A stretch of DNA of 64,000 nucleotides, from positions 1 to 64,000 of the forward strand of contig NIVC01000059.1 of assembly GCA_002269645.1 (NCBI GenBank), in the 5' to 3' direction. The stretch is from Macrostomum lignano (lineage: Eukaryota). The translations under genes were made by a program, and so were the position numbers. Under the pieces are notes generated by a model. The model saw only the letters and a program-made list of their open reading frames with translations. It searched no databases and was not told the DNA's origin. Shown one piece after another: positions 1 to 33,269 of the stretch; the first letter of the stretch is position 1, and the number at the start of each line of letters is the position of its first letter.

Positions 1-474
1 ATTGACACAGAGTTTGTTAGACAAGTTCACACACGCGTGTGCAGAGGACTGCTCCCGAATGCAGGATCGTATAGAATTAAGCACGCCAAGCCAGCAGGCG
101 CGAGTATGTATTACAGTGCCCCAGAAAATATTGAACGGCAGCTGGTAAAATTAACTAGAGACATAAAAGAGCCACAAATCTTGCGTGATGCAGTAGTGAC
201 AGGAGCATATTTCCTAGAAAAGTTTCTCACCATACACCCCTTTAGCGACGGCAATGGTAGAACTGCTAGGTTGTTATTATCAAAGTTGATCAACCGGATT
301 CTGCCAGAACCCGTATCATTTGCGTATGCAAATAGAGACACATATCTCAACTGTCTTTACGAAGCGCGCAGCAGCAACCGGGGGCTCCTAGCGGCGTATT
401 TACTTTTATCAATTGAGAGAACCGTTCTACAGTGGAGGGAATGGTTGGAAATCTGTTCAGACGGCAGCCTATAA
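1..474 (+). CDS. Fic/Doc-domain protein (AMPylase), 5' end outside the window
   Basis: Frame is open from base 1 (IDTEFVRQVHTRVCRGLLPNAGSYR). Canonical Fic motif HPFSDGNGRTAR; stop TAA at 472-474. Confidence 0.9.
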   Translation: MDTEFVRQVHTRVCRGLLPNAGSYRIKHAKPAGASMYYSAPENIERQLVKLTRDIKEPQILRDAVVTGAYFLEKFLTIHPFSDGNGRTARLLLSKLINRILPEPVSFAYANRDTYLNCLYEARSSNRGLLAAYLLLSIERTVLQWREWLEICSDGSL

Positions 475-479
475 ATAAA
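470..479 (+). promoter_or_regulatory. TATAAATAAA: TATA box plus polyA signal at the Fic stop
   Basis: Overlaps the Fic stop codon; 39 nt before ATG 509. Confidence 0.6.
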
Positions 480-508
480 TAAAATTGGTATTTCTCAACA
501 ATATCGAA

Positions 509-861
509 ATGTACTGGCAATCGGAAATAGTGTACACCCACGTTGACAACGCAGTGCTGGAAGTGGGATATTGGGACCCAAACAAGCCGCGTTTCCGCAT
601 CCACTGTCAAAACTGTAGCTGTCCAGGAGCCGTGTTTAGTCGAGCACAATGGCATCGAATGAAATTTCTGGCACTAGCTGCACAGATTACGATCTCGGAG
701 GCGGCGCATCTATCAAAGTTATCGACGGGAAGCGCCTGTACGTAAAAGGAGACTGCGAATTTCACCTGTCAGACAAAATACTTTGTGCAGTTGAAAAGAA
801 TAGAGTCGACAATTTCTTCCACTATTTCTTTCTCGACGAATCTGACGAGTCAGAGGAATGA
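509..861 (+). CDS. PC4-like ssDNA-binding/coactivator protein, split by a 1-nt frameshift near 662-667
   Basis: ATG 509 lies 39 nt after a TATA motif. PGAVFSRAQWHRMK resembles the PC4 KGISL..EQW..LK motif. The -1 frame continues YDLGGGASIKVIDGKRLYV and ends in an acidic tail. Confidence 0.5.
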
Positions 862-1358
862 GCTGGATTTCTCGAGACTACCCGCTTTTATCGAGCAAAG
901 AAAGGGCAGAGTACGAGACCCTGAAAAAGTCCACAGACTGGTTATGCATTTGTCACGGCAAACCAATTCCCGAACGATTAGTCACCTTTAATGTCGAGGT
1001 AGACGAAATTGGGCAAGGGCCTTACAGCACCCAAGAATATACAGATGCCCGAATTGACTACTACTTTAGAGACAAGATGCATTTCAAAGCCAATCTTCAA
1101 AGAATGGAGCAGATAATTGCCCCAATATTACAAGAGGATCATCGTGAGAAAATACGGTACCGGAATCACCAGCCGATTGCTCCCTCGTGGACGGAACACC
1201 AAAGGATTTGGCGACCTAAACACAGTAGACCAGTGCTAGCGAAGTTGACTATCAACCCTCACTGCAGCTGCATTACGACACGCCTCAAACCCTCGACCAG
1301 AAGATCGAAACAAAAGGTTTATTTTTTCCGGATTTCCAACACCGGAAAGTGTCGTTAA
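858..1358 (+). CDS. Hypothetical Polinton protein (166 aa)
   Basis: ATG overlaps the upstream stop (ATGA). Fills the gap between element genes; no family recognised. Confidence 0.6.
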   Translation: MSWISRDYPLLSSKERAEYETLKKSTDWLCICHGKPIPERLVTFNVEVDEIGQGPYSTQEYTDARIDYYFRDKMHFKANLQRMEQIIAPILQEDHREKIRYRNHQPIAPSWTEHQRIWRPKHSRPVLAKLTINPHCSCITTRLKPSTRRSKQKVYFFRISNTGKCR

Positions 1359-1408
1359 AGAAGGACTATAACAAAAACGCCCAGCCACCCCACCCTCCGC
1401 GCCAAGGG

Positions 1409-1416
1409 TATATAAG
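1409..1416 (+). promoter_or_regulatory. TATA box (TATATAAG) of the SSB-like gene
   Basis: GC-flanked; 51 nt before ATG 1460. Confidence 0.65.
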
Positions 1417-1459
1417 GAGGCGCTCAGGAGCGAGACCCACTCTCAGCAGCAGCAGCAAC

Positions 1460-2140
1460 ATGGATACCGTTCAAGACTACAATAGTGTTAGGATCGACCT
1501 ATTCTCTCTCAAGTCGAGAGGTCCAAGCTACAACGGAACCGAGACGTACGACATTGAGTACGACGAACAGGGCCCTCTCTATCTTGCCAATGCGACGCCC
1601 GTACTGATTGTCAAGGGTGTGAGAACCGACAATGAAGGCCGCGAATTCATCATTCTTTCCCAAAAGCACTTGGAGAGCTGCATACCAGAAGCGTTCAATT
1701 CCGTGTGTCACCAGCTCTCTATCCAAGGAATGGCGCTATTGGGGTACAACCCCACTTTTGGCTGCGACAGCGCTGCATTCGGATTGGCTCACGACTTTAA
1801 AATGTACGACAAGAGCGGCAAGTTGTGCACCGACTACAAGAACAAGACGGGCTACTATAGAGTACTGTTCGCCCTAGACACGGCGGTGATTCACGACTCG
1901 GTTCTAACCGCGGTGCCGAAAATTCAACAACTGCAATTCATAGAAGCTCCCAAGCAGGCGTTTGACCGCTGCTACTGGATTCCACCGTTAAAAATCAAGG
2001 TAGGACGCAAGCGCGGAGCTGGTGGAGCTGAGCGGAAACAAAAGCAACCGAAAAAACCGCTTGCAGAACGTCGTGTGCGTAAACAGGGTGTTTTGCGCAA
2101 GGTGGAACCACCTACCGAACTTGGACTGGGCGCGCGCTAG
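1460..2140 (+). CDS. Putative OB-fold ssDNA-binding protein with basic NLS-like tail
   Basis: Strong-context ATG (caacATGg) 51 nt after TATATAAG. C-terminal VPKIQQLQFIE strand resembles viral gp2.5-type SSBs; followed by GRKRGAGGAERKQKQPKK. The family call is by eye. Confidence 0.55.
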   Translation: MDTVQDYNSVRIDLFSLKSRGPSYNGTETYDIEYDEQGPLYLANATPVLIVKGVRTDNEGREFIILSQKHLESCIPEAFNSVCHQLSIQGMALLGYNPTFGCDSAAFGLAHDFKMYDKSGKLCTDYKNKTGYYRVLFALDTAVIHDSVLTAVPKIQQLQFIEAPKQAFDRCYWIPPLKIKVGRKRGAGGAERKQKQPKKPLAERRVRKQGVLRKVEPPTELGLGAR

Positions 2141-2540
2141 AACGTTTCATAGACCCCGGGCATTGTACAACCTGAGGATCGGAAAGTGTACAATAAACTT
2201 TTTCAAACGTTCATTATCTGCCATTGTTTTTGGTTGCCAATCAACCAACGATGTGCTGCGTCTTTTTGCTCAATGTAAACCAAACTCTGTTGTTATCACT
2301 ACCGGTACTTATCGTGCAGAAGTTAATGTTAAGCCAAACTTTTTCCGCCTTGCCAACTCGAGCTCGCGCTGGGTTGAGTGGGAGAGTGAGGTATTCAATG
2401 GGCTTGTAATAAAGTCCCCATTCCGCAAGGCCAAGTGCCTGCTGTGCGGAAAGAATGGTCGGTTAGTGTTCCTAGGAATACGAAACTATGACGAACTGTG
2501 TAAAATGTACGACCACGTGACTGCTATTCTGCAACTCTAA
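2022..2540 (+). CDS. Divergent TATA-binding protein (TBP)-like protein, no in-frame AUG
   Basis: Two TBP-like repeats: RLQNVVCVN (cf. QLQNIVST), EWESEVFNGLVIK (cf. SYEPELFPGLIYR), GRLVFLGIRNYDEL (cf. GKVVLTGAKVRAEI). The frame is open from 2004 with only CTG/GTG starts. Confidence 0.7.
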   Translation: MELSGNKSNRKNRLQNVVCVNRVFCARWNHLPNLDWARARTFHRPRALYNLRIGKCTINFFKRSLSAIVFGCQSTNDVLRLFAQCKPNSVVITTGTYRAEVNVKPNFFRLANSSSRWVEWESEVFNGLVIKSPFRKAKCLLCGKNGRLVFLGIRNYDELCKMYDHVTAILQL

Positions 2541-2552
2541 TTATGCTTTGCT

Positions 2553-2562
2553 TATAAATAAA
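2553..2562 (+). promoter_or_regulatory. TATAAATAAA: TATA box plus polyA signal
   Basis: 13 nt after the TBP-like stop; 53 nt before ATG 2606. Confidence 0.6.
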
Positions 2563-2605
2563 CAAAATATGCACATGTATGCACGCAATGCTTACCACCT
2601 TAATA

Positions 2606-2968
2606 ATGACAAACGGAATTTCTCGTCTTTGTTCTTGCCGTCGCGAGCTAGAGGAGCTCGGTGACGCGCGACCACATCGAAGGAGGGCCATTATTAGGGG
2701 AGCCGATAATGAGTTGATGCAGTGTCTGTGCGAGTTAAGCCACAATGTACTCAAGGGCAATATCGATCTATCCCCTAGACAGTTTGCAAGGTTGAAACGT
2801 TATAGAGAAGCCCTGCATGACATGGCCGACAAAAAACTGTCTATAAATAGGAAGAAGAATATGATACTATCGGACCCTCAAGTTGGAGGATTCCTACCAA
2901 TTCTCGCCAAGATTGCTGCACCGTTAATCACTGGACTGTTTGGTGGTCTGCTAGGACAACGACGTTGA
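2606..2968 (+). CDS. Polinton/adintovirus core protein with adenovirus pX-like C-terminus
   Basis: LCELSHNVLKGNIDLS...QVGGFLPILAKIAAPLITGLFGG. The GG/FLP plus hydrophobic tail resembles adenovirus pX. In-frame ATGs at 2579, 2588 and 2606. Confidence 0.75.
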   Translation: MTNGISRLCSCRRELEELGDARPHRRRAIIRGADNELMQCLCELSHNVLKGNIDLSPRQFARLKRYREALHDMADKKLSINRKKNMILSDPQVGGFLPILAKIAAPLITGLFGGLLGQRR

Positions 2969-2970
2969 AA

Positions 2971-3534
2971 ATGGACAAGTACGTTGTGGTCCCCGAGGAG
3001 GAATTCAATCAGCTTAGACAGGGTACTCCGCGAGAAATTGCCCCAAAATCGGAGTACGAAAAACTTGTAGAGTACAATGCAAAGCTACAGACCCAATTGG
3101 CTAAAGTAAAACCCCAAAAGACGACAAAGCAGCTATTTTCTGATAGGCAACAACGTATATGGAATATACTAACAGAAAAGCACCCCAGCCTAAATTACAA
3201 CCAATCGTGGGAAGTCGTTTTTGATGGTGAAACTTGGGGTGGCAGCAACGTTTTTGATCTTCTACAAGCCGTCACCACCAACACTAATAATCACCCGAAA
3301 TATTCAACCGCTTTCTGGGCTCTGCTAGACAAGGCCCGTATACCAATGTCTATGCTCGGTCGGAAACAGCTCCCTGTGGAGGAAAAGAAGGTTGACCATA
3401 TGGTTGGTACCGACGATTACCGCGATGAATATGAGCACACAATTGCGACAGACACCCGCGATTTAACGACCACGCGCAACAAAGGTGTAAATGCTATGCC
3501 CAAACTTGTCGATCGAAGGTACCGGGGTGGGTAA
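2971..3534 (+). CDS. Conserved Polinton protein of unknown function upstream of the integrase
   Basis: GGSNVFDLL...FWALLDKARIPMSMLG pattern, typical of the Maverick gene in this position. A possible +1-frame C-terminus (GVGKYHDYQLRPPEKKKKYVTLYK) runs to 3598. Confidence 0.7.
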   Translation: MDKYVVVPEEEFNQLRQGTPREIAPKSEYEKLVEYNAKLQTQLAKVKPQKTTKQLFSDRQQRIWNILTEKHPSLNYNQSWEVVFDGETWGGSNVFDLLQAVTTNTNNHPKYSTAFWALLDKARIPMSMLGRKQLPVEEKKVDHMVGTDDYRDEYEHTIATDTRDLTTTRNKGVNAMPKLVDRRYRGG

Positions 3535-3589
3535 ATATCACGATTACCAACTAAGACCACCCGAGAAAAAGAAAAAATACGTGACTCTT

Positions 3590-3597
3590 TATAAATA
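3590..3597 (+). promoter_or_regulatory. TATA box upstream of the integrase region
   Basis: TATAAATA 45 nt before ATG 3635. Confidence 0.55.
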
Positions 3598-3710
3598 GAA
3601 CCCTAGTCCAAACATAACCGCGCGCCCGGCGGTCATGGGCGCAGCAGCAGCCGCGTCAAAGCTTTGTGTAGACAACTCCCCAGCCGACATTACGTGCAAC
3701 TATTCATGCT

Positions 3711-4810
3711 GTGCATCCACACTTGTTGTCAATGAGGGCTCTAACCGCTCTTCGTCGAGTTTACGAACAAGGAGCCGCCGCTTTTTCAAATGCTGCCCGT
3801 GTCTATCAGGAGGCCAAACGTCTGGCGCCAAACCTGACAAGACGCCAAACCAGGGAATGGCTAGAAACCCAACCGAGTTACACCCGTCACCGGAGAGTCA
3901 ACAGGACATTTAAAACGGGAAAAGTAATGTCGGGAGGATTCATGGAAACTCTACAAGCCGATTTGATGGACATGTCGCGATACAAACGTTGGAATGACGG
4001 ACATAAATATATACTAGTTATTATTGATGTGCTTAGTAAGCAGGCTTTTTGTAGGGCAATTAAACTAAAGAGTGATACCCCCGCAGCGTTTGAGTCAATG
4101 TTGGCGAATGATTTCCCTGCCCGCCCCCTTTACCTTCACGTGGATCGGGGTACCGAGTTTTATAATCAGCGAATGCGCCGCATACTAAAAGACAATAATG
4201 TTAAAATGTACAGCACCAACTCTGTGTACAAGGCAAACATGGCCGAGAGGCTGATTAGAACTCTTCGAAAGCGTCTGGCTCGCTACTTTGAGCACAACAA
4301 CACGTGGCGTTGGGTTGACTACTTACCTAATTTGATAGGCAATTACAACAACACGACGCATTCTACTATTGAGATGAAACCGTCAAGTGTAGGGTTCCAC
4401 AATCAGAAGCGTGTGTGGGAAAAGCTCTACCCGGATCAGCAAAAAGACGACCCGTATATAAAAAGGGGGATTTTGTGAGAATTTCGAAATCTCGCAGGGC
4501 ATTCGACAAGGAGGCATACGACATGTATAGTGAGGAGGTGTACATTATATCCAAAGTTTGCCCTGGACCCCCACATTTTTATCGTATTTCTGATTTGTCT
4601 GGTGAAGTGATTGAGGGACGGTTTTACTACAATGAACTGTCCAAATCTACCCGACCCGAGCGTTTTGTAATCAATAAAGTTTTGCGTAGAAACGTGTTAA
4701 TAAATGGTGTTGCGCACCATTACGTTAGCTGGCGCGGTTATCCCGACACTTTTAATTCATTTGTACCTGTAAATGAAGTTATAAATATACGTCAACGTAA
4801 TAATAACTAA
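3711..4810 (+). CDS. Retroviral-like (rve, DDE) integrase with C-terminal chromodomain; 1-nt frameshift at A5 run 4441-4445
   Basis: QADL / HVDRGTEF / AERLIRTL catalytic triad. The second frame gives KKGDFVRISK and the chromodomain YVSWRGYPDTFNSF. Adding one A joins them as DQQKRRPVYKKGD. Confidence 0.93.
4780..4787 (+). promoter_or_regulatory. TATA box of the minor capsid gene (inside the integrase 3' end)
   Basis: TATAAATA 43 nt before ATG 4823. Confidence 0.55.
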
Positions 4811-4822
4811 TGCGTGGCTACC

Positions 4823-5953
4823 ATGCATCTCTTTCTGCCTAGCAATGCGTGCCCCGAGCACTATCCCGAAAATAATCCGGCTCATTATTTTATTAATTTA
4901 CCGGACACTCTCCACTTTCCGAATCATGAGGTTTGCCTCGAACGGATCTACTTTACCAAAGAATTTGAATCTTTCAAAAAATCTATACCGATCACCATTC
5001 GCGAACAGGAGGGCCTCTTGACGGCTTCGTCGTTTGCAAGCCTTTGTCTCGCAGCGGGTCTGAAAACCCCTGAAGAATGTATTTCCGGCTTTCTAAACGG
5101 TATCCGATACGTTGAAGGGGATAATAAGAAAATTGTCTTTTTAAGAACATCCCCAACCGCCTTTATGATTGTGAATACTTCAAAATCCACCGTCGGCATC
5201 AAATTCCCGGATGCCCTACCCAAGGTGTTTAAACTAGTCGCCGGCTTCGAGTCTAATGAGGATCTACCTACTGAACTCGTATTACACGCGGGGTGTGCAG
5301 CCTCCATCACCGCAGTTGTTGAGGAACCGACTGTACAGTCAATGGACCACGCTCCAATAATAAGACAAGTTACTAGCGCAGCGTCTGATCAAATCTATTT
5401 TATGCAGGGTGGATACTATAGTACACCTAAAAGATTGGTGGAGGAACTCAACGATTTAATTTGGAAACGGATCAAAGATCTCATAGCGGCTCCAGCACCT
5501 AGAAAGGACTTTTTCGGATACAGCGAAGTTACGAATAGGTGTTATTACATCGGCTCGGTGGATTACATGTTTGGGTTGGGGCGCTTGACCAGCGTGCTTG
5601 GTTTCCCAGAGCATGATTATACAACCCCATTTTTCGGTATATCGGATTTCTACGCAAACGCATCAATGGAATTAACCGGTGGAATACAAACAATGTACAT
5701 CTATTCGAGCATAGTCGATTCTGTTATTGTAGGAGACGTTAAAGTTCCTCTGTTGGGAGCTATACCGATGGATCCCAAAGTTCAGGGCGGTCGCGAGTAC
5801 TACGAGTTTGTCAATCCGGCATATCTACCGCTGGTTAAGCACCCATTCAAAACTATTGAAGTACAAATTAACGATGATATGGGCAGGGATATGACAAAAG
5901 TAATGAGGGGCAAGACCGTCTTGAGCGTTAACATCCGCGAAAAGAAGCTATAA
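4823..5953 (+). CDS. Minor capsid protein (penton, single jelly-roll)
   Basis: N-terminal LFLPSN..YPEN.P..Y...LP and C-terminal MYIYSSIVDSVIVGDVKVPLL...Y.P...F.TIEV.I.D..G motifs of Polinton minor capsid proteins; ATG in accATG context. Confidence 0.9.
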   Translation: MHLFLPSNACPEHYPENNPAHYFINLPDTLHFPNHEVCLERIYFTKEFESFKKSIPITIREQEGLLTASSFASLCLAAGLKTPEECISGFLNGIRYVEGDNKKIVFLRTSPTAFMIVNTSKSTVGIKFPDALPKVFKLVAGFESNEDLPTELVLHAGCAASITAVVEEPTVQSMDHAPIIRQVTSAASDQIYFMQGGYYSTPKRLVEELNDLIWKRIKDLIAAPAPRKDFFGYSEVTNRCYYIGSVDYMFGLGRLTSVLGFPEHDYTTPFFGISDFYANASMELTGGIQTMYIYSSIVDSVIVGDVKVPLLGAIPMDPKVQGGREYYEFVNPAYLPLVKHPFKTIEVQINDDMGRDMTKVMRGKTVLSVNIREKKL

Positions 5954-5958
5954 ATAAA
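5949..5958 (+). promoter_or_regulatory. TATAAATAAA at the minor capsid stop
   Basis: Overlaps TAA 5951-5953; 48 nt before ATG 5997. Confidence 0.6.
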
Positions 5959-5996
5959 CAGCACAGCCTCAGTAAACTATATCCTAGTGCTTAATC

Positions 5997-6341
5997 ATGC
6001 CTTCTATTCTGATTGGTGGAGCTTTGCCTGTTTTCGCGGGCGCCCAGAGGGGCAACGGTTTGTTTGGAAGCATTGCCCGCTTCGCGCTGCCAATTCTAAA
6101 GAGTTTTGGTAAAAACGTTCTCCGTCATGGTACTAGAGCCCTAGCAACTACTGTTAACGATAGCCTCGAGCAAGGAGGCAATTTGAAGGAGTCTGTCCTG
6201 CGCAATTCTGTTCAGGCTGCCAAGGACGCCTTTAAAGACACGGTTACCCAAAGGGGTAGCGGACGAAGAAGAAAAAAGGCTCCGAAGCGTCTCAATTCAG
6301 ACATTTTCAGCACTATAAATAAAAAGCCCCGCTTCAATTAG
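5997..6341 (+). CDS. Small basic Polinton virion protein with QxGxG motifs and amphipathic helix
   Basis: QRGNGLFGSIARFALPILKSFGK...QRGSGRRRKK; lies between the minor and major capsid genes. Confidence 0.8.
   Translation: MPSILIGGALPVFAGAQRGNGLFGSIARFALPILKSFGKNVLRHGTRALATTVNDSLEQGGNLKESVLRNSVQAAKDAFKDTVTQRGSGRRRKKAPKRLNSDIFSTINKKPRFN
6314..6323 (+). promoter_or_regulatory. TATAAATAAA upstream of the MCP
   Basis: 57 nt before ATG 6371. Confidence 0.6.
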
Positions 6342-6370
6342 ATTCGCCGAATCGAGTCTGTCTACTAAAC

Positions 6371-7654
6371 ATGTCCGAGTGTCTGTGTACAAAGTCCGAG
6401 TTTGAGCTCTTTGCCCCTCGAGCCCACCAGATTGCCGCTGTAGGTTCAACTACTGAAGAAATCCACCCGGTTGCCAGCGTCGAAAATGCGAGTGTGGTTG
6501 AGTTTAGAATTGTGGGCGGCGAGACGTTTGTCGATCTTAATGACATTGATCTCGAGATTAAAGGTTGTATTAAAAGAGCTAATGGAGCCGATTTGGCGGC
6601 GGATTCAAACGTGGCGCCAATCAATTACCTCTTGGAGACCATGTTCAAAAACGTGTCTCTTTCCATAAATGGTACACATATCGAGTCTAGCAACAACAAC
6701 CACGCCTACAAGGCGTACATTCGTACATGCTTGAGTTATGGGTCTGATTCAAAGTCTAACCAACTGCGGATGATGGGCTACGCTAAAGACGCTGGGGGTC
6801 AAATGGCTGCGGTTGGAAATCCTGGCTTTGTAACTCGCAAGGCGATGGCTGCCGGTTCTCGAACATTTCACCTGTATGGCCCTCTTAGTCTCGACTTTTT
6901 TGTCACCAACGATCGTATGCTGCTACCCTACACTGATATGGTGGTTACGCTCACTCTGCAAAATTCGGGATTCGTTGTAGAGAATCACGCCGAAGGGGTT
7001 GATGCAAAGTTGGTTCTTCAAAGTGCAAAATTACACGTTCGTCGGGTAAAGGCTAACCCCCAACTGGCCTTGGAGATTGAAGAACAGCTGGCGACTCAGA
7101 ATGCAGTCTACCCCATCGAGCGCCTCGTTGTACACAACACCTCTGTCGCTGTAGGAGTTCGCGACGTGTCAATCAATAATATTTTCCCGGAGCAGAAGCC
7201 TAAACTTGTCATTATGGGGATGGTAAATAGTGCCGCATATAACGGGGTGGCTACCCATAATCCGTTCAATTTCGAGCCATTTGGGGCTGACAGTGTGGCC
7301 CTGTACAAGGACGGTGTCAGTCTGTGCGGTCAACCATTCACTCCAAGGTTCGCTGCCCAAAACTATGCTCGCGAATACGCCATGCTGTTTAAGAGCCTAG
7401 GGAAAATGAATCGCGATTTGGACATTGACCTGTCATATTCGGATTATCGCGCCGGTTACTGCTTATTTGCGTGGAATCTAATGCCCGATATGGAACTGGG
7501 TGGACATAGCATGCCTCGCGAGAGAGGGAATCTGACCCTACAGATAAAGTTTTCTGCAGCCCTACCTGCCGGGATTAACGTTTTGGTGTTTGGTTACTTT
7601 GACAACGCGGTGCAAATCACTAGAGGCCGCCAGCCCATTCTGGACTACGTATGA
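6371..7654 (+). CDS. Major capsid protein (double jelly-roll)
   Basis: Intact 427-aa ORF with CTKSEFELF, VEFRI, FVDL, F.NV.L.ING, AYKAYI..LSY, NPFNFE and GNL.L.IKF motifs typical of the Polinton MCP. Confidence 0.93.
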   Translation: MSECLCTKSEFELFAPRAHQIAAVGSTTEEIHPVASVENASVVEFRIVGGETFVDLNDIDLEIKGCIKRANGADLAADSNVAPINYLLETMFKNVSLSINGTHIESSNNNHAYKAYIRTCLSYGSDSKSNQLRMMGYAKDAGGQMAAVGNPGFVTRKAMAAGSRTFHLYGPLSLDFFVTNDRMLLPYTDMVVTLTLQNSGFVVENHAEGVDAKLVLQSAKLHVRRVKANPQLALEIEEQLATQNAVYPIERLVVHNTSVAVGVRDVSINNIFPEQKPKLVIMGMVNSAAYNGVATHNPFNFEPFGADSVALYKDGVSLCGQPFTPRFAAQNYAREYAMLFKSLGKMNRDLDIDLSYSDYRAGYCLFAWNLMPDMELGGHSMPRERGNLTLQIKFSAALPAGINVLVFGYFDNAVQITRGRQPILDYV

Positions 7655-8087
7655 ACACGTTGGAAATTTTGGAGTGTTTAAAACTACCTGTGGAAGTGCA
7701 CGTTTGCCCTCTCGACAGAATTCCTGCACCTGTTTACCCTGCTGCATATGTAATTAATTTTGACACGGGTAATCTGCCAGGCACCCACTGGGGACTGATT
7801 TGCCTACACGATGATAAGAGTGTGACATTTTTTGACCCTCTGTGTATTGAACCCGTGCCGGAATTGCTCTCGGCTTGGATCTCGAAGCATGTACATTCAC
7901 CTGTTGCTATGAATCGCCACCCTGTTCAACACCCTCTAAGTGTAGCGTGTGGGCCGCATGTGATTTTTGTGGCCGAAAAGCACTTTTTAGAGGGTTGTCG
8001 ATTGAAAAGATTTTAAGGGAATGTTACTCTACCAATCTGCTTGAAAATGATTTGATGGTTCGAAAACATGTTCTACAAATAAAATAG
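7651..8087 (+). CDS. Adenain-like cysteine maturation protease; 1-nt frameshift at T5 run 7984-7988
   Basis: GTHW (His), FFDP (Asp), Q..SVACG (Gln/Cys). The -1 frame supplies the C-terminus FRGLSIEKIL...NLLENDLMV. The ATG overlaps the MCP stop (ATGA). Confidence 0.9.
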
Positions 8088-8121
8088 TTTTTAATATTTG
8101 GAGTGTCAACTCGCCCTGAAA

Positions 8122-8751
8122 ATGTACCAAACAATTGATCCTGACGCTCTAAAGTTTGCTCCAAATACTTCGGCGATTTTTGCTGGTGTTAACCAGAGCG
8201 GAAAAACAACTCTTGTTAAAGAATTGCTGCGAAACGAGTTTTTTCAGGACCCTAAGCCTGTTCGCGTTGATTGGTTTGGGCACTATCCAGACCCGGAACT
8301 GTTTGAATTACCGTACCCTGTCAATTTTCGCTCGTCTACATTTAACCCTGAAACCTATGTTCCCGCTCCGAATATTCTACTCGTTGTCGATGATCAAATG
8401 CAAGCCATGGAAAAAAACGCTGCTTTTACCGCATTTTTCACTCGCAAAGTCAGCCATGTGGGATTCCGGCTTTGGTACCTTGTACAAAACCTGTTTGCCA
8501 AGGGCAAGGAGCACCGCACTCAATCCCTTAACGCAAACTACCTTGTATTGTTCCGCAATGTACGGGACGTTAGTACAGTCGCCCATATTGCAAAGCAGCT
8601 TGTCCCCGCTAACCCAAAAAGTTTTGTTCAAATGTACGAAGACGCCACTAGGGAGCCCTACTCCTACTTGATTGTTAATTGCTTGCAGAACGCATCTGTT
8701 CGCTACTATGCTAATGTGTTGGGGCGCTACCCCGTAGTTTATGCTAAATAA
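8122..8751 (+). CDS. DNA-packaging ATPase (FtsK-HerA/A32-like)
   Basis: Walker A GVNQSGKT, Walker B LLVVDD, then QNLF...RTQSLNANYLVLFRNVRD; AATAAA at 8747-8752. Confidence 0.93.
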   Translation: MYQTIDPDALKFAPNTSAIFAGVNQSGKTTLVKELLRNEFFQDPKPVRVDWFGHYPDPELFELPYPVNFRSSTFNPETYVPAPNILLVVDDQMQAMEKNAAFTAFFTRKVSHVGFRLWYLVQNLFAKGKEHRTQSLNANYLVLFRNVRDVSTVAHIAKQLVPANPKSFVQMYEDATREPYSYLIVNCLQNASVRYYANVLGRYPVVYAK

Positions 8752-8839
8752 AACACTGTTGGAGAGCTTTGCTCTGTTTGCCGGATGGCCTGAACCTGAA
8801 ACAACTAAAATACGTGTTTTTTCTTTTCAAGTCCTCTAC

Positions 8840-9503
8840 TGCCCTGGGGGGAGCTCTCTATCACTCACCCCCGGTCTGTCCCGCGCCTCCAGACTGGGCC
8901 GCTCTCTCCGCGGGGGGTGTGATTCATACTCCCTCTCTGTCCACGCCGCGTGCTGCGACATGCCAGGGCAGCGCAGGGTGCCTCCACGCACTCTCTGTCC
9001 CAGCACCCCGTGTCTCTTTGTACCCCACCTCATACTGCTACAGGGGTCGCCTGTTATCTGTCCCCTGCTACAGGGGGATGGCGGCTCTCCACGCACTACC
9101 CCTCCTGCTACAGGGGCTGCTCTCTGTCCCCAGCTACAGGGCTGCTCTCTGTCCCCCGCATGGGGGGCCGGTTGCTCAGTGTACAGGGCTGCGTCAGCAT
9201 CGGGGGTTTCCTTCCTACACTAACCGCGTGCACACGACATTGGTGGGAGGGGCGGGAATCCCCCCGCCGGATGTACACCCCGAGGGAGGCCCATGCGCTG
9301 AAGGTACACTCGCTGGACGCCCAGCCGGCCGGATGTACACTCGCGGGAGGCCCACCCCGCTGGAGGTACACTCGCTGGACACCCACCCCGCTGGAGGTAC
9401 ACCCCGGGGGAGGTGGTACACCCCGAGGGAGCACCTTGCCGCGGTGCTAGAGGCCGACATCAGCCCGACGGACCTTCGCAAAATCGAGCCATTCGGAATC
9501 CCT
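8840..9503. repeat. GC-rich terminal region (candidate TIR) with CTCTGTCC sub-repeats and a 31-bp-periodic GTACAC array
   Basis: GTACAC at 9273, 9304, 9335, 9366, 9397 and 9416; stem GGCGGG/CCCGCC at 9251-9268. The partner TIR is not in the window. Confidence 0.55.
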
Positions 9504-10417
9504 TAGTAGTAGCACTTACAGCAGATAAGCGCTGCTTTTGAAGATTAGCGTAGCCCCAGCAAAAGCATAAGTATACAAAATAAAATGTTAAAAATTTGCA
9601 TGAATCCCCATAGGAAACAATGATTATTGTCACAAAGATAAATTCGCTACTTCAATGTAGACTCGAACTGCCGACCTTCTACTAAAAGACTTATACTATT
9701 TTAGAAGTTTAGTAACTTCACACTTTGAAGTTAACCCCTCCCCCCAGAAATCGGCAGTTATCCCCACAACAACCTGAAATTAGCTATCACTTCTAATCCC
9801 GCAAACAGACTGCAGTCATACTCTTAGCAGCCTGCAGGTACGAGTATCCACCTTGCTGTCTACAACTTTCATTAGCATCGGCAAACTACAATAATTCACT
9901 CAGCAGTCCGCAGTTACTCGTATCCCCTCAACAACTTGCTCTGCTATACACTCATAAGTCTGGAGGAATACCTCAGCAGTTTTTTTTCAATTTTTCCCAT
10001 TGCAGTCTGCATGAATGAGTCATCTCAGCAATGATTCTTTCAGTAATCTGATAATTTGCTCAGTATTTAGTACAGCTCACTAATCAATTTGGCGATCCAT
10101 ATCGGAAGTCTTTTGCGCAGCTCAGCATTTAGCAGTACCTTCAGCTGTTTAGCTATTTAGCAGCATCGTCTGCAATTCGGGAGCAGTAATACACAAGCAG
10201 TTTTTTTACAAATCAAATTTTAAAATGCACTGGCTGAAATCAAATCAAATTCAAATTGACAAAATCAATTTGTTTAGCAGCTTGTGCTGAATAGCAAAAA
10301 TATTGTGCTGAATAGCAAATATAATTCATTGAGTGTGGCTTACTAATTAATAAAAAATGATTCAATTAGTTGAGGCGCTAGGTATAAATGAACTAATTTA
10401 TTTAATTTTAATTATCG

Positions 10418-26383: not shown

Positions 26384-27314
26384 CTATTGGTCGTTCTCCA
26401 GATCCTTAAACCAGACGTCGCCCTGCAGCTGCGTCGTCTCGGATGGCAAGTTAAACATGGGCTCCTGGGGTTGCTGATTGACGTACATCGGGAGGCGACC
26501 CAGCCTTTGGCGCACCATATTAAGCATAGTGCAGAGGTGATGGGTCTTGTAGTTTTCTCTGAACACTTCGCACAAATTTTGTATGTAAATACTTCCTGTC
26601 GTCGGGCATCTCAGAGCGTAGTCACCCCTAGTCACCGAGTAGGCAAATAGAAAGTCGAGCTTCTCGGAGAGTTGTCTGTTTAACCGCCTGTTGGAGGCAT
26701 CGAAATTGCTTGGACTGCTGTTGTTGCTTCCGACAGACGACACCGGCTGGTCGACGTTTGACTCGGCTGTCACGCTGGCGCCGACGCCGAGAGGCCGACA
26801 GGCCTGCAGGAAGAACAGCTTCGGCTTCTGCTGCAGAGAGTCACAGCAGTAGAATGGCGCGAATATGTCATCTAGGGCGACCCACTCGCCATCGCAGCCA
26901 AGAACGCGGTCGCATTCACCGTGCGACATGATGAAAGCAACGAAACAGTCAAATTTCGTGTGACGATCGCGGGCAGCTAGCGATCGCATCAGGGCGAGAA
27001 TGTCGCACGCGTCCAGATTCTGGTGGACTTGAACCCGAAACTTGAGTGTGTCCTTAAACAGTCGCTCCAGACTGGCTACATCTTTCCTTGAGCCGGGTCG
27101 AGGTTCACATTCGCCTGAGAACTGCTCATTGTTGATGATGACGCACATTCCACGTGGATTGGAGCGCATGGAGTACTGGTAGCCGCGTATAGGCGGCACA
27201 ACACTGGAGTTCAAATTCGAACTGTCCATCTCCGCTGAAGGTACTTCAGCTAGCTGAGCACTTCCAGCGTCAAGCTGCATCTTGACTCCTGCTGTCTCAT
27301 TGCTGGTGGCGCTG
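26384..27314 (-). CDS. Ankyrin-repeat caspase, exon 4: caspase (C14) catalytic domain
   Basis: PRGMCVIINN, RPGSRKD, FIMSHG (His), KPKLFFLQACRP (Cys), DFLFAYS, GSIYIQNLC. Acceptor ttttttacag at 27315, phase 2. Confidence 0.9.
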
Positions 27315-27480
27315 CTGTAAAAAATTAGACAGAGATACAGATAATGTGGAAGATTTTCAAAATTCAGCCAAGCAAAATTTATTTGTTATAAAACTGAGAA
27401 AATATGACGTCACGATTGCATAAAAATCTAAAAATGAATGAGCAACGAGGTACTCTCCACGTTTGTAAAAGCTATCTAAC

Positions 27481-28257
27481 CTTGATGGTATTGGCGCCGT
27501 AGCGGCCTCCCAGCTGCATTTTCGCTTCCTGTCGAGCTTGACCAGCATCTCAATAGCCGCGGTTCTCTTCGCCCGCTTGGCCAGATCCATGGCGTTGCCC
27601 TGCGAGCTCTTGTAGTAGATATCAGCCCCAACATTGGCTAGCAGTTCCAGCATGTCCGTGTGGCCCTTTACCGCGGCTAGGGTGAAAGCGGTGTTGCAGT
27701 TCTTCTTAGGGCTTGTCTGCAGTTCCAGGTCGGCATCGTGACTGATCAACAGTTTCGCTAGCTCCAGCAGATTTTCTTGGGCGCAAAAGTGCAGCGCGCT
27801 GAATCCATCAATTTCTTGGTCGTTGACGCTGGCATGCCTGTCTAACAGTAGCTTGGCGATGTCCATATGGTTAAGCCAAGCTGCTCGAATCAGCGGAGTC
27901 CGATTGTCTTTGCTCCTGGCATTGAGGCCGATGGACTTCTGGTCCAAGAGGACTTTGACAACCCGACGGCTGTTCTGCTGCACCGCGATGTGCAGCGCTG
28001 TGATGCCAAGCTTTTGCTCCGTGACATTGGGATCCGCGCCTCGATCTAGCAGCAGCTTACAAGTACTTTCATCATCATTCCAGGCGCTAGCCATCAAAGC
28101 GGTCCATCCTGGATCCTGTTGGCTTCGTTTGTTGATGCTATCCCGCACCGCTTGGCTAGAATCGAGCAGTTCCTTCACCTTTTCCGGGTTGGCATCCATC
28201 GCTGCCTTAAACAGTCTGGCAGTTGTCAGCTCCTCATTGTTCTTCGCGTTTTTAGGC
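27481..28257 (-). CDS. Ankyrin-repeat caspase, exon 3 (~7 ankyrin repeats)
   Basis: GWTALM, GITALH, RTPLI, GFSALH repeats. Acceptor cttctcccag at 28258, donor AG|GTTAGA at 27480; 777 nt, symmetric phase 2. Confidence 0.85.
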
Positions 28258-28485
28258 CTGGGAGAAGTGCGAGAGTGGAATGCGACAGCGTTAATGGGAG
28301 CCAAACTATTGACAGCTTAAATTTTTAGTTATTACTCACTAGACATTTCCATTTCTTTATAGCATGACATATATAGTTATTCACTTCACGTTGTGGCTAC
28401 ATTTTAGAGGCAATTTCTTGTACATGTAATTAGCTTCGCATAAGGGCCTAGAGACAAGACAATTAATGTCAATTTATGGTCTTAC

Positions 28486-29115
28486 ATTTCCTCTAGCACA
28501 GCATTCGCCGCTTCGAATTGCCGAGCCGCCTTGGCTTCCTCGAGAATCTGTGGCAGCCATGTTTCGCGACTCAAATTATCGTCGAGTTTACGAAGTCGAT
28601 TGAGCATCAGGCGCAGCACGTCCAGATGGCCACGGACGGCGGCCAACTTGGCCGGACAGAGCCGGCCGTCAGCACCTGGTGTCATCAATTCGTCCGCGCT
28701 GGCTCGTTCAATAATTAGCTCTGCGACATCCGTGGCCGAGCCCAGGTCGGCGCACAAGGACAGCGGAGTTGAACCCTGGGCGTCTAACACAGCCAGGCTG
28801 GCACCAGCTTGCAACAGCAACTTGACGCAGGACTCGCTGCCGCACTGGATGGCGGCATGCAGGGCAGTTGCTTTAGTCGAGTCTTCCGCTCGTCTATTGA
28901 CCTGAAAGTCGAGACTACTACTGCTGCCGATTAGTGAAAGTACCACTTTCAATGACTCCGTCTTGCCCAGTCCGGCAGCCAGCATCAGAGGCGTCCGGCC
29001 TGTTGTTCTATCTACGTTGGTCACTGTCTCCGACTTCGCTAGCTTCCGCACGCTTTCTAGATCGTCTTTGCGAATGGCGTCGGCAAGGCTGAGGCCTGCC
29101 GGTGCTGTCGGTTTG
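28486..29115 (-). CDS. Ankyrin-repeat caspase, exon 2 (~5 ankyrin repeats)
   Basis: GRTPLMLAA, ATALHAA, GSTPL repeats. Acceptor cactttgcag at 29116, donor AT|GTAAGA at 28485; 630 nt, symmetric phase 2. Confidence 0.85.
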
Positions 29116-30079
29116 CTGCAAAGTGATTAAATGTGCTTAAAGTAGTGTTTGTATAGTATGTCGTTTTTATTACTAGAAAAGATAGAAATATGCAGCGCAG
29201 TATGAGTATATCTCTATTGTGTGAGAGAATCGAGGATTGCCCATTAAAAGAGTTAATTATTTCTCCAATGGTTGCCCACCAAAAGAATCTATGATTGCCC
29301 ACCAGTGTGACCACAAAGAATTTATAAAAAATAGAGCAGTAAAAAATAGCGCAGCAGGATTCTGGAGTGTTTTAATGGCTATATGTGCTTTTTCAGAAAC
29401 TAAAATAGTAAAATAGCCAAATAATGGATGCAAGCTAGGATACATAGTGATGTAGCATTCTCGACAGGCAGATCAGGTAGTTCGTCTTCGTCCTAGCGCA
29501 AGCATAGTTTTCAGCAATTTCACTGTCCGGGGAGGCGACAGGGATAACCTCCGCCAGCTCATCTGTGAACCGGAACGAGCATCCTTCTTTGTAGTTTGTC
29601 AGCATCCGGGTCTCCGGGTCTTCATTAGAGGAAAAAATGTACAATTATTATTTGGCTCTGTTGCCCAGAATTGGACTGCTTGAGATGCTTCATTGCTGAT
29701 TTGTGCTTGGCATCACTGATTACGCTGAGCCTGAGTTGATGACGATGAACTTGAAGGCAAAGAAAAGCTCATGAATTTGCTTTTGGCTGAAGTTAGAAGC
29801 ATTTGAAAGCTTGAAGCATGCAGTCTGAACTAAATACATGTGCGAGCGCAAGTTAATCATTTGCATGCACATTCTTGTTTCAACTACTGATCAACTACCG
29901 ATCTTTTCTAAGTAAAAAATGAGCATGAAAGGCAAGAAAAAAGGGTTCATAGTTTCAATTTTTTTTTTTAGCGCAGATATGACCAAAAAGTAACTGTAAA
30001 ACCAAAATAGTAGCGCAGTTAAGCAGAAAACTATAAAATAGTGTGGTCACACTGCAAATGCTCTCTAAAAAATCAAATT

Positions 30080-30775
30080 TTGCTCCAGTGATTGCCCATC
30101 AACCGAGAGAATCGATGATTGCCCACTGAAAGAATCAATGATTGCTCCAGTGATTGCCCACCGACCGAGAGAATCGATGATTGCCCACTGAAAGAATCAA
30201 TTGTTGCTCCAGTGATTGCCCACCGACCGATAGAATCGATGATTGCCCACTGAAACAATCAATGATTGCTCCAGTGATTGCCCACCGACCGAGAGAATCG
30301 ATGATTGCCCACTGAAACAATCAATGATTGCTCCAGTGATTGTCCACCGACCGAGAGAATCGATGATTGCCCACTGAAACAATCAATGATTGCTCCAGTG
30401 ATTGCCCACCGACCGAGAGAATCGATGATTGCCCACTGAAACAATCAATGATTGCTCCAGTGATTACCCACCGACCGAGAGAATCGATGATTGCCCACTG
30501 AAACAATCAATGATTGCTCCAGTGATTACCCACCGACCGAGAGAATCGATGATTGCCCACTGAAACAATCAATGATTGCTCCAGTGATTGCCCACCGACC
30601 GATAGAATCGATGATTGCCCACTGAAACAATCAATGATTGCTCCAGTGATTGTCCACCGACCGAGAGAATCGATGATTGCCCACTGAAACAATCAATGAT
30701 TGCTCCAGTGATTGCTCTCTGAGTGAATCGATTATTGCCCATTAAAAGAATCAATTGTTGTTCCAGTGATTGCTC
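30080..30775. repeat. 62-bp minisatellite (~11 copies) in intron 1 of the ankyrin-caspase gene
   Basis: ORF-track repeats are offset by exactly 62 nt; a degenerate copy lies at ~29220-29310. Confidence 0.95.
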
Positions 30776-30910
30776 CCGAAAGAATTAACAATTCTCCACA
30801 GCAATCAAGCTTCTGCACTTTAGGTGCAGTGCAGATATGTCTCATATATACGGCCTTATCTTAAAAATAAACTTGTACCATGCAATCAAATCAACGCTAA
30901 CAAAACTCAC

Positions 30911-31776
30911 TTCCTGCTCTGACTACTCCAGCTCTGCAGCAGTTTCAGCAGCTCCTTCGAATCGCTGCCAGACACTTGGTCCAAGGCTGTGCAACCCTCG
31001 CTATTGGCAAAATTAGGATCGGCACCGTTCTCGTGCAGCAGCTGCACCATCTTTGCGTGGCCATTAAGCGAGGCTAAAATTAACGCTGTATTGCCTTTGA
31101 ACTCCGGCTTAGTTGGCTGGTTAACCATCTCAGGTGGTGCCTTGGCCAGGATGCGCTGTGCGATCTCGCGCCTGTCCAGCTGGGCGCAAAGGTGCAGCGC
31201 GGTGAAGCCGCTATTAGAGGCCAGGTCGAGTTTGGCGCCACGATCGATGAGCAGGTGAGCTAGCTGAACGCTGTTCTCAAACACGGACTTCATTAGAGCT
31301 GTGAATCCGCGACTGCTTTGCTGGTCGAGATTGATTGTCGGCTGTTTTAACAACACTTCGGCTAGCTCCGTGTGGCCCAAGTCAGCACAAATCATCAGCG
31401 CGGTAATGTCGTTCTCAGCCAGCAAGTTGACGTTGGCACCGGCTTGTAATAGTAACTTGGCTACGCGAATCGAATTCTGCTTGGCGCAGATGTGCATCGC
31501 ACTGAGCCCCGAGCTATCTTGATGGTCCAGGGGAGCTTTCTGTTCAATGAGCAGCCGGCAGACGTCCTCGCTATCCTTCCAGGCTGTGGCCATCAGCAAA
31601 CTCCTATTGCGATCTCTCTCATTAGTCCAGTCAGCAGGCAGGCCCTCACTAAGGTAGGACTGAACCTGGCTTACATCGCCTTTGCGGCAGAAGTCGTAGA
31701 ACTCGATGCAAAGCGGCGTCTTCGATGTGGTTTGGCAGCTGCGGCGGGCGGCGGCTGCGACGACAGCAGCGGCCAT
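30911..31776 (-). CDS. Ankyrin-repeat caspase, exon 1 (~8 ankyrin repeats)
   Basis: ATG at 31776; ITALM, GFTALM, GFTALH, GNTALI repeats; donor AA|GTGAGT at 30910, phase 2. Confidence 0.87.
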
Positions 31777-33269
31777 GCTTAATATTTAGACTGTAGAGTA
31801 AATTTCTACTATTAATTGTATTAATAGTGCTAGTTTAACTGAAAATCAGTAAATAGCATGCAGCATTCAGACTACACGCTGTGGCGAATGCCAAGTTGCC
31901 ATTATATCGGTTTCACTGTGGTCTGTGGCTAACAGAAACGGTTGAAACTTCGAATGAAATAGCGGCAAGTCCAGTAGTAGTCTGTCTGATAGAGGGGCGG
32001 GGGTTGGGTGAATGTGCGGACACCCCACCACTCAAACCTCCAAGGCAAGGGGTTGTTGGGACGGCGGGCGTGCGGAGGATTAGAAAGGTTTGGGGCGTGG
32101 AGGCACATAGGTGTGTGTACATTCAGCCCAGAAGCTAAAACAAAAGCTCCAACGCACGTATAGCGAAGTTCCACTAGCCATAGACGACTTTATTTACAAG
32201 ATCTCGGAAGTAGAATCTAGGAGTCCATGGGCTGGCCCAGTGTCGAGCGCTGAATTTCTAAACCGCTAAACAGTTCTGGCAGACTTGCTGGCAGACAGTG
32301 AGTTGTACCGAGTTCTGAGTTCTGAGTAACTTGCTTTCTGACGCGCGCCCAGGCGCGTTGCAGGCTCAGCTCAGGCACCCCACCTACCAAATTTAACAAG
32401 TTTATCGCTTAGTTAGTTGACGAGTCACCCCACAATTGAGACAAGAACCGCGTGGGCCGTGGTGTGATTGTGTGAACTCAATCACACGTTGGAGAGTGTA
32501 CACTGTACAGTATATTGGAGCATCAGGAGCCGGAGCCATAAAAGTACGAGTCAAGAGTAAAGTCGTGTTAGGTGTCCTAACTGAAGACTGCTGGGCCTCA
32601 AATTAAGTCTGTCCTATTAGTCCTAATAGAGAGTTCAGCTAAGGACTAGGCCTTCTGGCAAGCGGGAGTGTTGCGCAATCTTTTATGAGGGTAGCGTAGA
32701 GAAGAGCGATGAGATAAGAGGATGGATGGGATGAGAGAAGAAAGGACAGAAAAAATTAAAGAGAAGACTTGTGGGGAGAGAGGAGAGCTGAGAAGAGACA
32801 AAAGCCTAGAGCAGGCTATCGTGAACTTTCAAAAGGACAAGAGGGCCGGATAATGAGACTTCGCGGGCCAGATTTTGCCGACCCCTGGCCTAAAACCTCA
32901 AACCTTTTCAGCAATTCTCATTAGAATATAAAATTGTTTGCAAAAATGCATCAAACAGTCGCATCAAATAGAGTCGCATTGCAAAAAAGACAATACTAGA
33001 TTTCGTATTCTTGCAACTAAGCTAATCCTTAACCTTAAAATCATAGTGAATTGAACAGAATTTACATCTTTTTTAAATATTCTGAGCATCTTCGAGAAAG
33101 TGAAACACAGACCACAACATTGCGGTAACTCAAAACGTTTTATTTCTTTCTAGGTAGTGCCTTGACAATTAATTTAAGAGAGACAACCGACTTAACACAG
33201 TGCAGTATCAAGTTGCTTCAGTGCAGATTTGGTTTTTTAACGACTCTCCAAAACGAACTGCATTGCAGT

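Follow-up and report, generated by a model that had tools for sequence, protein, structure and literature searches.

How does a ribosome come to a gene that lacks its own start codon? The question is raised by a TBP-like open frame of 178 codons, counted from stop to stop, at 2004-2540 on the plus strand of the window, by which we mean the whole stretch of 64,000 nucleotides of Macrostomum lignano DNA that was analysed (contig NIVC01000059.1). A first-pass annotation placed the frame correctly and observed that no AUG precedes its domain. This is so: the earliest ATG in frame stands at 2505, 11 codons ahead of the stop. Nor does the frame have a TATA box of its own, as had also been said; between the TATA-like box at 1409, which belongs to the upstream gene, and the one at 2553 there is none. 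The overlap with the upstream ORF (ATG 1460) is genuine too, and only its size needs correction: the 120 nt or so given earlier become 137 nt when the open frame is counted, and 74 nt when the count begins beyond 2066.

Our answer is that this is a real, conserved, AUG-less gene, which is likely reached by splicing at 2066/2067. That the splicing occurs in cis, at an alternatively spliced intron, has in our estimate somewhat better than an even chance; that a host leader is spliced on in trans is unlikely. The first-pass annotation had considered a programmed +1 shift, CTG or GTG initiation and an assembly indel, and had overlooked two things, the pair of donor and acceptor and the host's spliced leader with its terminal AUG. 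The features that enter the argument are collected in Table 1.

Table 1. Features of the element and of the junction between the upstream and the TBP-like frames (window positions)
Feature	Position	Strand	Evidence or remark
Right-hand part of Polinton-like element	1..9511	+	Fic, integrase, protease-like, ATPase-like and presumed capsid genes; terminal inverted repeat
TATA-like box of upstream gene	1409..1415	+	51 nt before ATG 1460
Conserved core of upstream ORF, 180 codons, predicted SSB-like, predicted exon 1	1460..1999	+
Predicted 5' splice donor, AAG/GTAGGA	1997..2005	+	Between codons; 55 of 55 copies; sole AG/GTRNG on the plus strand of the family A element
Predicted alternatively spliced intron, 67 nt	2000..2066	+	Inferred; Lys/Arg-rich linker if retained
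CCG and A6 run, shift site of the first-pass annotation	2048..2056	+	8 nt common to family B; missing from three of four outside relatives
Predicted 3' splice acceptor, TTGCAG	2061..2066	+	Between TBP-frame codons; reads Leu-Gln, contains TTG; 53 of 55 copies
Predicted stem-loop common to families A and B	2063..2096	+	Covers acceptor AG; z -2.1 and -2.4; rank 10 of 118 shared peaks
TBP-like coding region, predicted exon 2, 157 codons	2067..2540	+	Pfam, PDB, ESM Atlas, profile, fold, dN/dS
Stop codon of upstream ORF on unspliced message	2138..2140	+

The element and its families

The integrase of the element is recognized by Pfam (PF00665, E 8.8e-10), its protease and ATPase match only weakly (E 0.079 and E 0.016), and the presumed capsid genes have no Pfam match; the labels capsid, protease and ATPase are our assumption, taken from gene order. 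An ORF with a Fic domain (PF02661, E 2.8e-14; window 1-474) marks the left end of family A, to which the window copy belongs. A second family, B, has neither this ORF nor the short ORFs that follow it. Both families are elements of about 10 kb with an integrase and with every gene on one strand. A family A copy (L101 and L102 on contig C1452 of G000) has 660-bp inverted repeats and a family B copy (L103 and L104 on C296, also G000) has repeats of about 440 bp, each with a 6-bp target duplication. In these two whole copies we found neither a polymerase nor a helicase gene, and no frame between the repeats exceeds 460 codons. Since a frame for a type B polymerase is thus missing, we class the elements as Polinton-like and not as canonical Polintons. 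Other families in the same genome have type B polymerases and could serve A and B as helpers. The family A copy L101 sits within a tandem repeat array.

Most other genes of the element have a TATA-like box 16-68 nt before their ATG. The TATAAAT boxes at 470, 2553, 5949 and 6314 overlap AATAAA signals, so that one short stretch may both end one gene and begin the next. Three further frames of the window copy are split (479-861, 3672-4810 and 7624-8087); these are likely assembly errors, not programmed shifts, as public runs show single-base indels there. Farther along, the minus strand at 26384-31785 has a host cluster of one caspase-like and three ankyrin-repeat-like ORFs, labelled by eye.

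A TBP-like protein maintained by selection

The frame is TBP-like, mainly on account of its second repeat. Pfam PF00352 aligns with residues 107-177 only (E 9.5e-5), and its 22.6 bits fall 0.3 bit short of the cut-off of 22.9. Seventeen of the 19 matches of a PDB sequence search are named TBP or TFIID (best E 0.0034). In the ESM Atlas, TBP clusters account for 28 of 30 matches at 0.94, with a recognition value of 1919, below the tool's mark of 2300. A profile-profile comparison with TBP gave a probability of 86.5% and E 4.6e-6. A fold check, which had been proposed, came out in favour of TBP: the top three fold matches of the model, itself poor (pLDDT 39, and below 50 for residues 1-60), are TBPs, with Z 5.3-6.1 over 74-78 residues.

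Some of what had been read from the protein by eye needs qualification. Of the two TBP repeats that were called recognisable, there is good evidence for the second only; the first lacks about 20 residues, and its alignment is poor. Two of the four DNA-kinking Phe residues were thought to be kept. The Phe of EVFNG does match TBP and is the one clear case; INFF is assigned as a kinking Phe by eye only, positions in the first repeat being uncertain, and the second Phe of repeat 2 is replaced by Cys.

The TBP-like proteins of families A and B are 77% identical, with synonymous sites near saturation (pS 0.69), and dN/dS over the 157 codons after 2066 is 0.08. Because of this low ratio we regard the frame as a real, maintained gene under purifying selection. 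An AATAAA at 2408, inside the frame, is common to A and B; it may be a poly(A) site for unspliced message or may be there by chance. Another at 2192 was rejected as a poly(A) site, since family B lacks it.

Is the split between the two frames an artefact? It might be an assembly error, the decay of a constitutive fusion, or a sign that the gene is dead. The CCG at 2048-2050 and the A6 at 2051-2056, where a hidden indel had been suspected, are both present. When paralogous copies are compared, A6 and the split are kept in 29 of the 30 family A sister copies; the exception, L018, has a linker one base shorter and reads as a single 375-codon frame, as a constitutive fusion would. Twenty public runs contain the stretch, none of them recorded as RNA. 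Eight were examined (seven guessed to be RNA, one unlabelled) as assembled contigs, and the contigs of seven cross the A-run without a gap. In such contigs minor forms are lost, and their source may have been DNA; their cover is spread over the element, diverged copies included. Elsewhere the same runs do show single-base indels against the window copy, which would suit an error. The split is nevertheless also kept across six lineages, as described below, and the dN/dS of 0.08 is not that of a pseudogene. Copies and runs already refute this reading, to which we give a negligible probability.

The upstream protein

The upstream core is about 75% identical to that of family B and 46-56% identical to four proteins from outside these families; the likeness to the outside proteins ends at Ile-Lys-Val. 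It is plausible that the protein is SSB-like, judging from weak fold matches. The best of 48,161 chains for its model (pLDDT 47) is ASFV CP312R, with Z 4.1 (the next has 3.0), and T7 gp2.5 has Z 2.6; in a comparison with giant-virus proteins there were seven matches, weak ones, at E<=0.001. We take CP312R, gp2.5 and the matched giant-virus proteins to be SSBs, and CP312R to be of the T7 gp2.5-like family. Foldseek against the PDB gave nothing at E<=0.001 for the same model. The sequence itself has no match in Pfam or among PDB sequences, the ESM Atlas gave no usable match, and the best in PHROGs has E 0.094.

An overlap common to six lineages

The linker between the conserved core and the TBP-like domain is 64-200 nt long over six lineages (A, B and the four outside), and in no lineage is the majority form a multiple of three. 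In family A it measures 67 nt (3n+1). In family B it measures 195-200 nt, and there, too, no ATG lies upstream for the TBP frame. Among 25 family B copies the phase is 3n+2 in 14 and 3n in one; the other 10 are 3n+1 and meet a stop before the site. A second count gave 18, 11 and 3 of 32 loci for 3n+2, 3n+1 and 3n (from 71 loci in all, with seven fragments left out and one 153-nt second match discarded). The shorter family B linkers are probably homopolymer under-calls.

The four outside upstream proteins have linkers of 64, 67, 67 and 187 nt, and in their tails, as in family A, the TBP start is read in that same other frame. Two pairs of upstream and TBP proteins, P0004/P0001 and P0005/P0002, agree with a +1 relation for 46 and 18 codons, so that the overlapping layout is a shared one. 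These lineages are related to each other and known only as proteins; their surrounding DNA was not found in viral contigs, metagenome contigs or phage records. The TBP frame is at +1 in five of the six lineages. Since A, B and the four outside lineages all have it, the AUG-less overlap is ancestral to at least these six. In the upstream frame the linker is free of stops in family A, in most B copies and in the four outside proteins. A weak search for longer, fused SSB-TBP homologues scored 8000 candidates and yielded none.

Splice-like signals at the junction

At the two ends of the linker stand sequences that look like splice signals. ATCAAG/GTAGG occurs in all of the 55 family A and B copies counted (56 loci were taken, and one without anchors was dropped) and TTGCAG/ in 53; one old copy reads AAG/GTAAG. 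Over about 9 kb of plus strand there is one AG/GTRNG in A and there are two in B, with 13 YTNCAG in each, and exactly one of either kind is aligned across both families. These two are the junction pair, 1999/2000 and 2066/2067. The patterns were chosen after the site had been seen, and a single donor per element is no more than chance allows (12 of 100 shuffles). About one time in four, A and B would be expected to agree at the two donor codons.

The outside lineages bear on the donor as well. The residue after Ile-Lys-Val is Gly in A and B and Arg, Cys, Cys and Arg in the other four, so that the middle of its codon is G in all six, at donor position +5; elsewhere this holds for 11% of linker residues. 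Because the six lineages are related, we count this as moderate evidence. At the acceptor position CAG is possible in all four outside relatives. Conservation of the acceptor also has a protein explanation, since TTG CAG encodes the Leu-Gln of TBP. In host TBP the conserved Asn is preceded by Leu-Gln, and after splicing the Ile-Lys from the end of exon 1 would stand in that place.

How well would such an intron suit the host? Myosin genes of the host gave 16 inferred introns, an approximate set whose shortest member has 83 nt; GTAGG is the donor of none of them, and according to passages of PMC8629364 the host's top donor motif is GT[G/A]AG, unlike GTAGG. Flatworm introns of less than 75 nt do exist, often without a pyrimidine tract (PMC6530080, in part), and the portion of PMC10468722 used here has general intron figures only. 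The acceptors of the 16 introns have a pyrimidine share of 0.41-0.88, A/C-rich ones included, and the share at the junction is 0.41. No canonical branch point is seen in the 67-nt linker. In the contigs of the eight runs only the unspliced form is present, with neither a spliced joint 1999-2067 nor a loose end at 2067; as assembled contigs cannot show absence, this speaks neither for nor against splicing.

How might the TBP-like frame be reached?

We favour an alternatively spliced intron, at the somewhat better than even chance given above. By excising the 67-nt GT-AG stretch 2000-2066, the host spliceosome would bring the 180-codon core, predicted to be SSB-like, into one frame with the 157-codon TBP-like domain and so give an SSB-TBP fusion of 337 residues. 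If the stretch were retained, translation would give an SSB-like protein whose tail is basic and NLS-like and ends at 2140. Hence a single promoter (the TATA box at 1409) could yield two proteins. Both signals fall between codons, and for this reason the join works equally for linkers of 67 nt and of 195-200 nt. Read in the upstream frame, the linker has no stop and is basic, which suggests that the retained form, too, is in use. As to what a fusion might do, our guess is that it would couple single-stranded, replicating DNA to the TATA boxes before most genes of the element.

The acceptor could also serve a leader. If the AUG-ending spliced leader of the host were trans-spliced at the AG of 2065-2066, its AUG would be in frame at 2067 and a stand-alone TBP-like protein of 158 residues would result. 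The leader's 3' end (sequence from the part of PMC8629364 used) has 71 exact matches in the genome, and the three tandem leader loci fetched all run on into a GTAAG donor; these matches and donors indicate that the host is a flatworm with an AUG-ending leader. TTGCAG fits the trans-acceptor motif [T/C]TNCAG reported in the same portion of PMC8629364, leader AUGs start flatworm ORFs (PMC9851317, in a passage citing Cheng 2006), and flatworm acceptors are often common to cis- and trans-splicing (PMC12582326, likewise in part). The 67 nt of the linker are, moreover, fewer than in any of the 16 inferred host introns. The leader leaves the conserved donor 64-200 nt upstream unexplained, although it can coexist with it, and an acceptor that has a cis donor is normally cis-spliced, again according to passages of PMC8629364. 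Four of the seven inspected leader matches are not leader genes. With these points set against each other we regard a leader as unlikely to be the explanation.

Some leader matches have an unusual surrounding. At four (L089-L092) the match is followed by unrelated sequence with no donor, as expected of retro-copies of trans-spliced messages. No contig has both a leader match and a TBP-family A or B match, hence no leader-bearing retro-copy of the gene was seen.

The upstream protein and the TBP-like domain would also be fused if ribosomes made a programmed shift of frame, or transcription slipped, near the A-run. The +1 phase of five lineages is what such a shift calls for, and it would keep Leu-Gln-Asn, which matches TBP. 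It can also accommodate two things for which splicing gives no explanation: CCGAAAAA is common to A and B in a linker that is otherwise unalignable, and a shared stem-loop begins 6 nt behind the A-run. The z scores of this stem-loop, however, come from a 45-nt window chosen afterwards, its rank among shared peaks is only 10 of 118, folding windows of 93 and 67 nt gave no signal, and Rfam has no match within 1200-2800. The stem-loop may stimulate a shift, may mask the acceptor and so set the ratio of retention, or may be a consequence of the codons. Against a shift stands family B, where 14 of the 25 copies need one in the opposite direction and the other 11 stop before the site. Neither family has an X XXY YYZ heptamer, and three of the four outside relatives lack the Lys codons at the A-run, so that neither a slippery site nor a direction is conserved. 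We consider a shift rather improbable. The first-pass proposal of an SSB-TBP fusion thus survives in part: the gene is TBP-like, has no AUG and is probably joined to the upstream protein, whereas the +1 shift at A6 is weakened, although the stem-loop still lends it some support.

Finally, a near-cognate codon might serve as the start on unspliced message, through leaky scanning, re-initiation or an internal promoter; the TTG at 2061 is the most plausible candidate. The TTG is kept in A and B, the gene caller started P0001 at a TTG, and this start would supply the complete Gln-Asn-Val-Val beginning. The genome also has distant elements whose overlapping TBP-like gene is expressed from an ATG of its own, and in three of the four inspected that gene lacks a TATA box. 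In P0006, however, the triplet before the CAG position can be neither TTG nor ATG, and a TTG start at that place is impossible. At -3 of this codon both families have a pyrimidine, a strong ATG stands 600 nt ahead of it, it has no TATA box, and its use would leave the donor unexplained. The CTG and GTG codons proposed earlier (2019-2027) fare no better, as they are not kept in family B. Near-cognate initiation therefore seems to us highly improbable. An inner ATG was rejected as a start, since it is at different codons in B and in P0001/P0002 and is missing in A.

Cis- and trans-splicing could also operate together. The host leader would then supply an AUG at the acceptor that the cis donor shares, and one promoter would give three proteins (SSB with a basic tail, SSB-TBP and a leader-started TBP). 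To this combination we attach a small but appreciable chance; if it is true, TBP expression is tied to hosts with an AUG-ending leader.

What would follow

If the alternatively spliced intron is real and conserved, Polinton-like elements have an RNA processing like that of adenoviruses, and an SSB-like protein fused to a TBP-like domain would be a new architecture, in an element without its own polymerase. If a host leader gives the AUG, this would be a virus gene that needs trans-splicing for its start codon and whose host range is bounded by that need. There is also a practical side. Polinton-like elements are annotated as sets of intronless ORFs, and gene callers therefore start the TBP-like gene wrongly, at TTG or at an inner ATG (P0001, P0002).

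Comparison with known systems

Families A and B share with Polintons/Mavericks the terminal inverted repeats, the 6-bp target duplication and a retrovirus-like integrase; Polintons/Mavericks have a protein-primed type B polymerase, and A and B have none between the repeats. The same genome has at least 150 TBP-family matches, most of them from two other Polinton families (L069-L088), where the overlap with the upstream ORF is about 300 nt; that ORF is presumably exonuclease-like. In these families, C and D, the TBP-like gene also lies in the +1 frame over the tail of the upstream ORF. They differ in that the upstream gene is of another kind, a polymerase is nearby in family C, and the TBP-like proteins are only 18-23% identical to that of the window. 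They differ, too, in having an ordinary ATG (15 of the 20 loci fetched, among the matches listed). An ordinary start in other copies, which would have told against the first-pass view, is thus found in distant families only and not in A and B.

With cellular and giant-virus TBP (PF00352) the window protein has in common a second repeat with E-x-F-x-G and matches of its modelled fold to yeast, human and archaeal TBP; it differs in its short, degenerate first repeat, in the replacement of at least one kinking Phe and in the predicted fusion to an SSB-like protein. The upstream protein may resemble T7 gp2.5-like SSBs such as ASFV CP312R, which are marked by an OB fold with a capping helix, according to the weak fold matches of its pLDDT 47 model; it has no sequence match to them, and its tail is basic. 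T7 gp2.5-like SSBs usually end acidic.

Adenoviruses make several proteins from one promoter by alternative splicing, and their choice of splice sites resembles the two-protein output proposed here for the Polinton-like junction. A start codon donated in trans would have its likeness in flatworm genes with a leader-supplied AUG (passages of PMC9851317). Figure legends on related viruses do name TBP-like genes (Starrett et al. on Polintons/Mavericks and adintoviruses, PMC8502044; bioRxiv 10.1101/697771, both in part); the string 'splic' is absent from these two texts, and their passages mention no AUG-less TBP gene. In the literature on Polintons with TBP, splicing or a leader, including the preprint 10.64898/2026.10.13.758929, the available parts of which exclude most subscription papers and supplements, the arrangement was not found described. 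What is known, then, is that related viruses have TBP-like genes; what seems new is a TBP-like gene without an AUG, at a junction that looks like a splice site.
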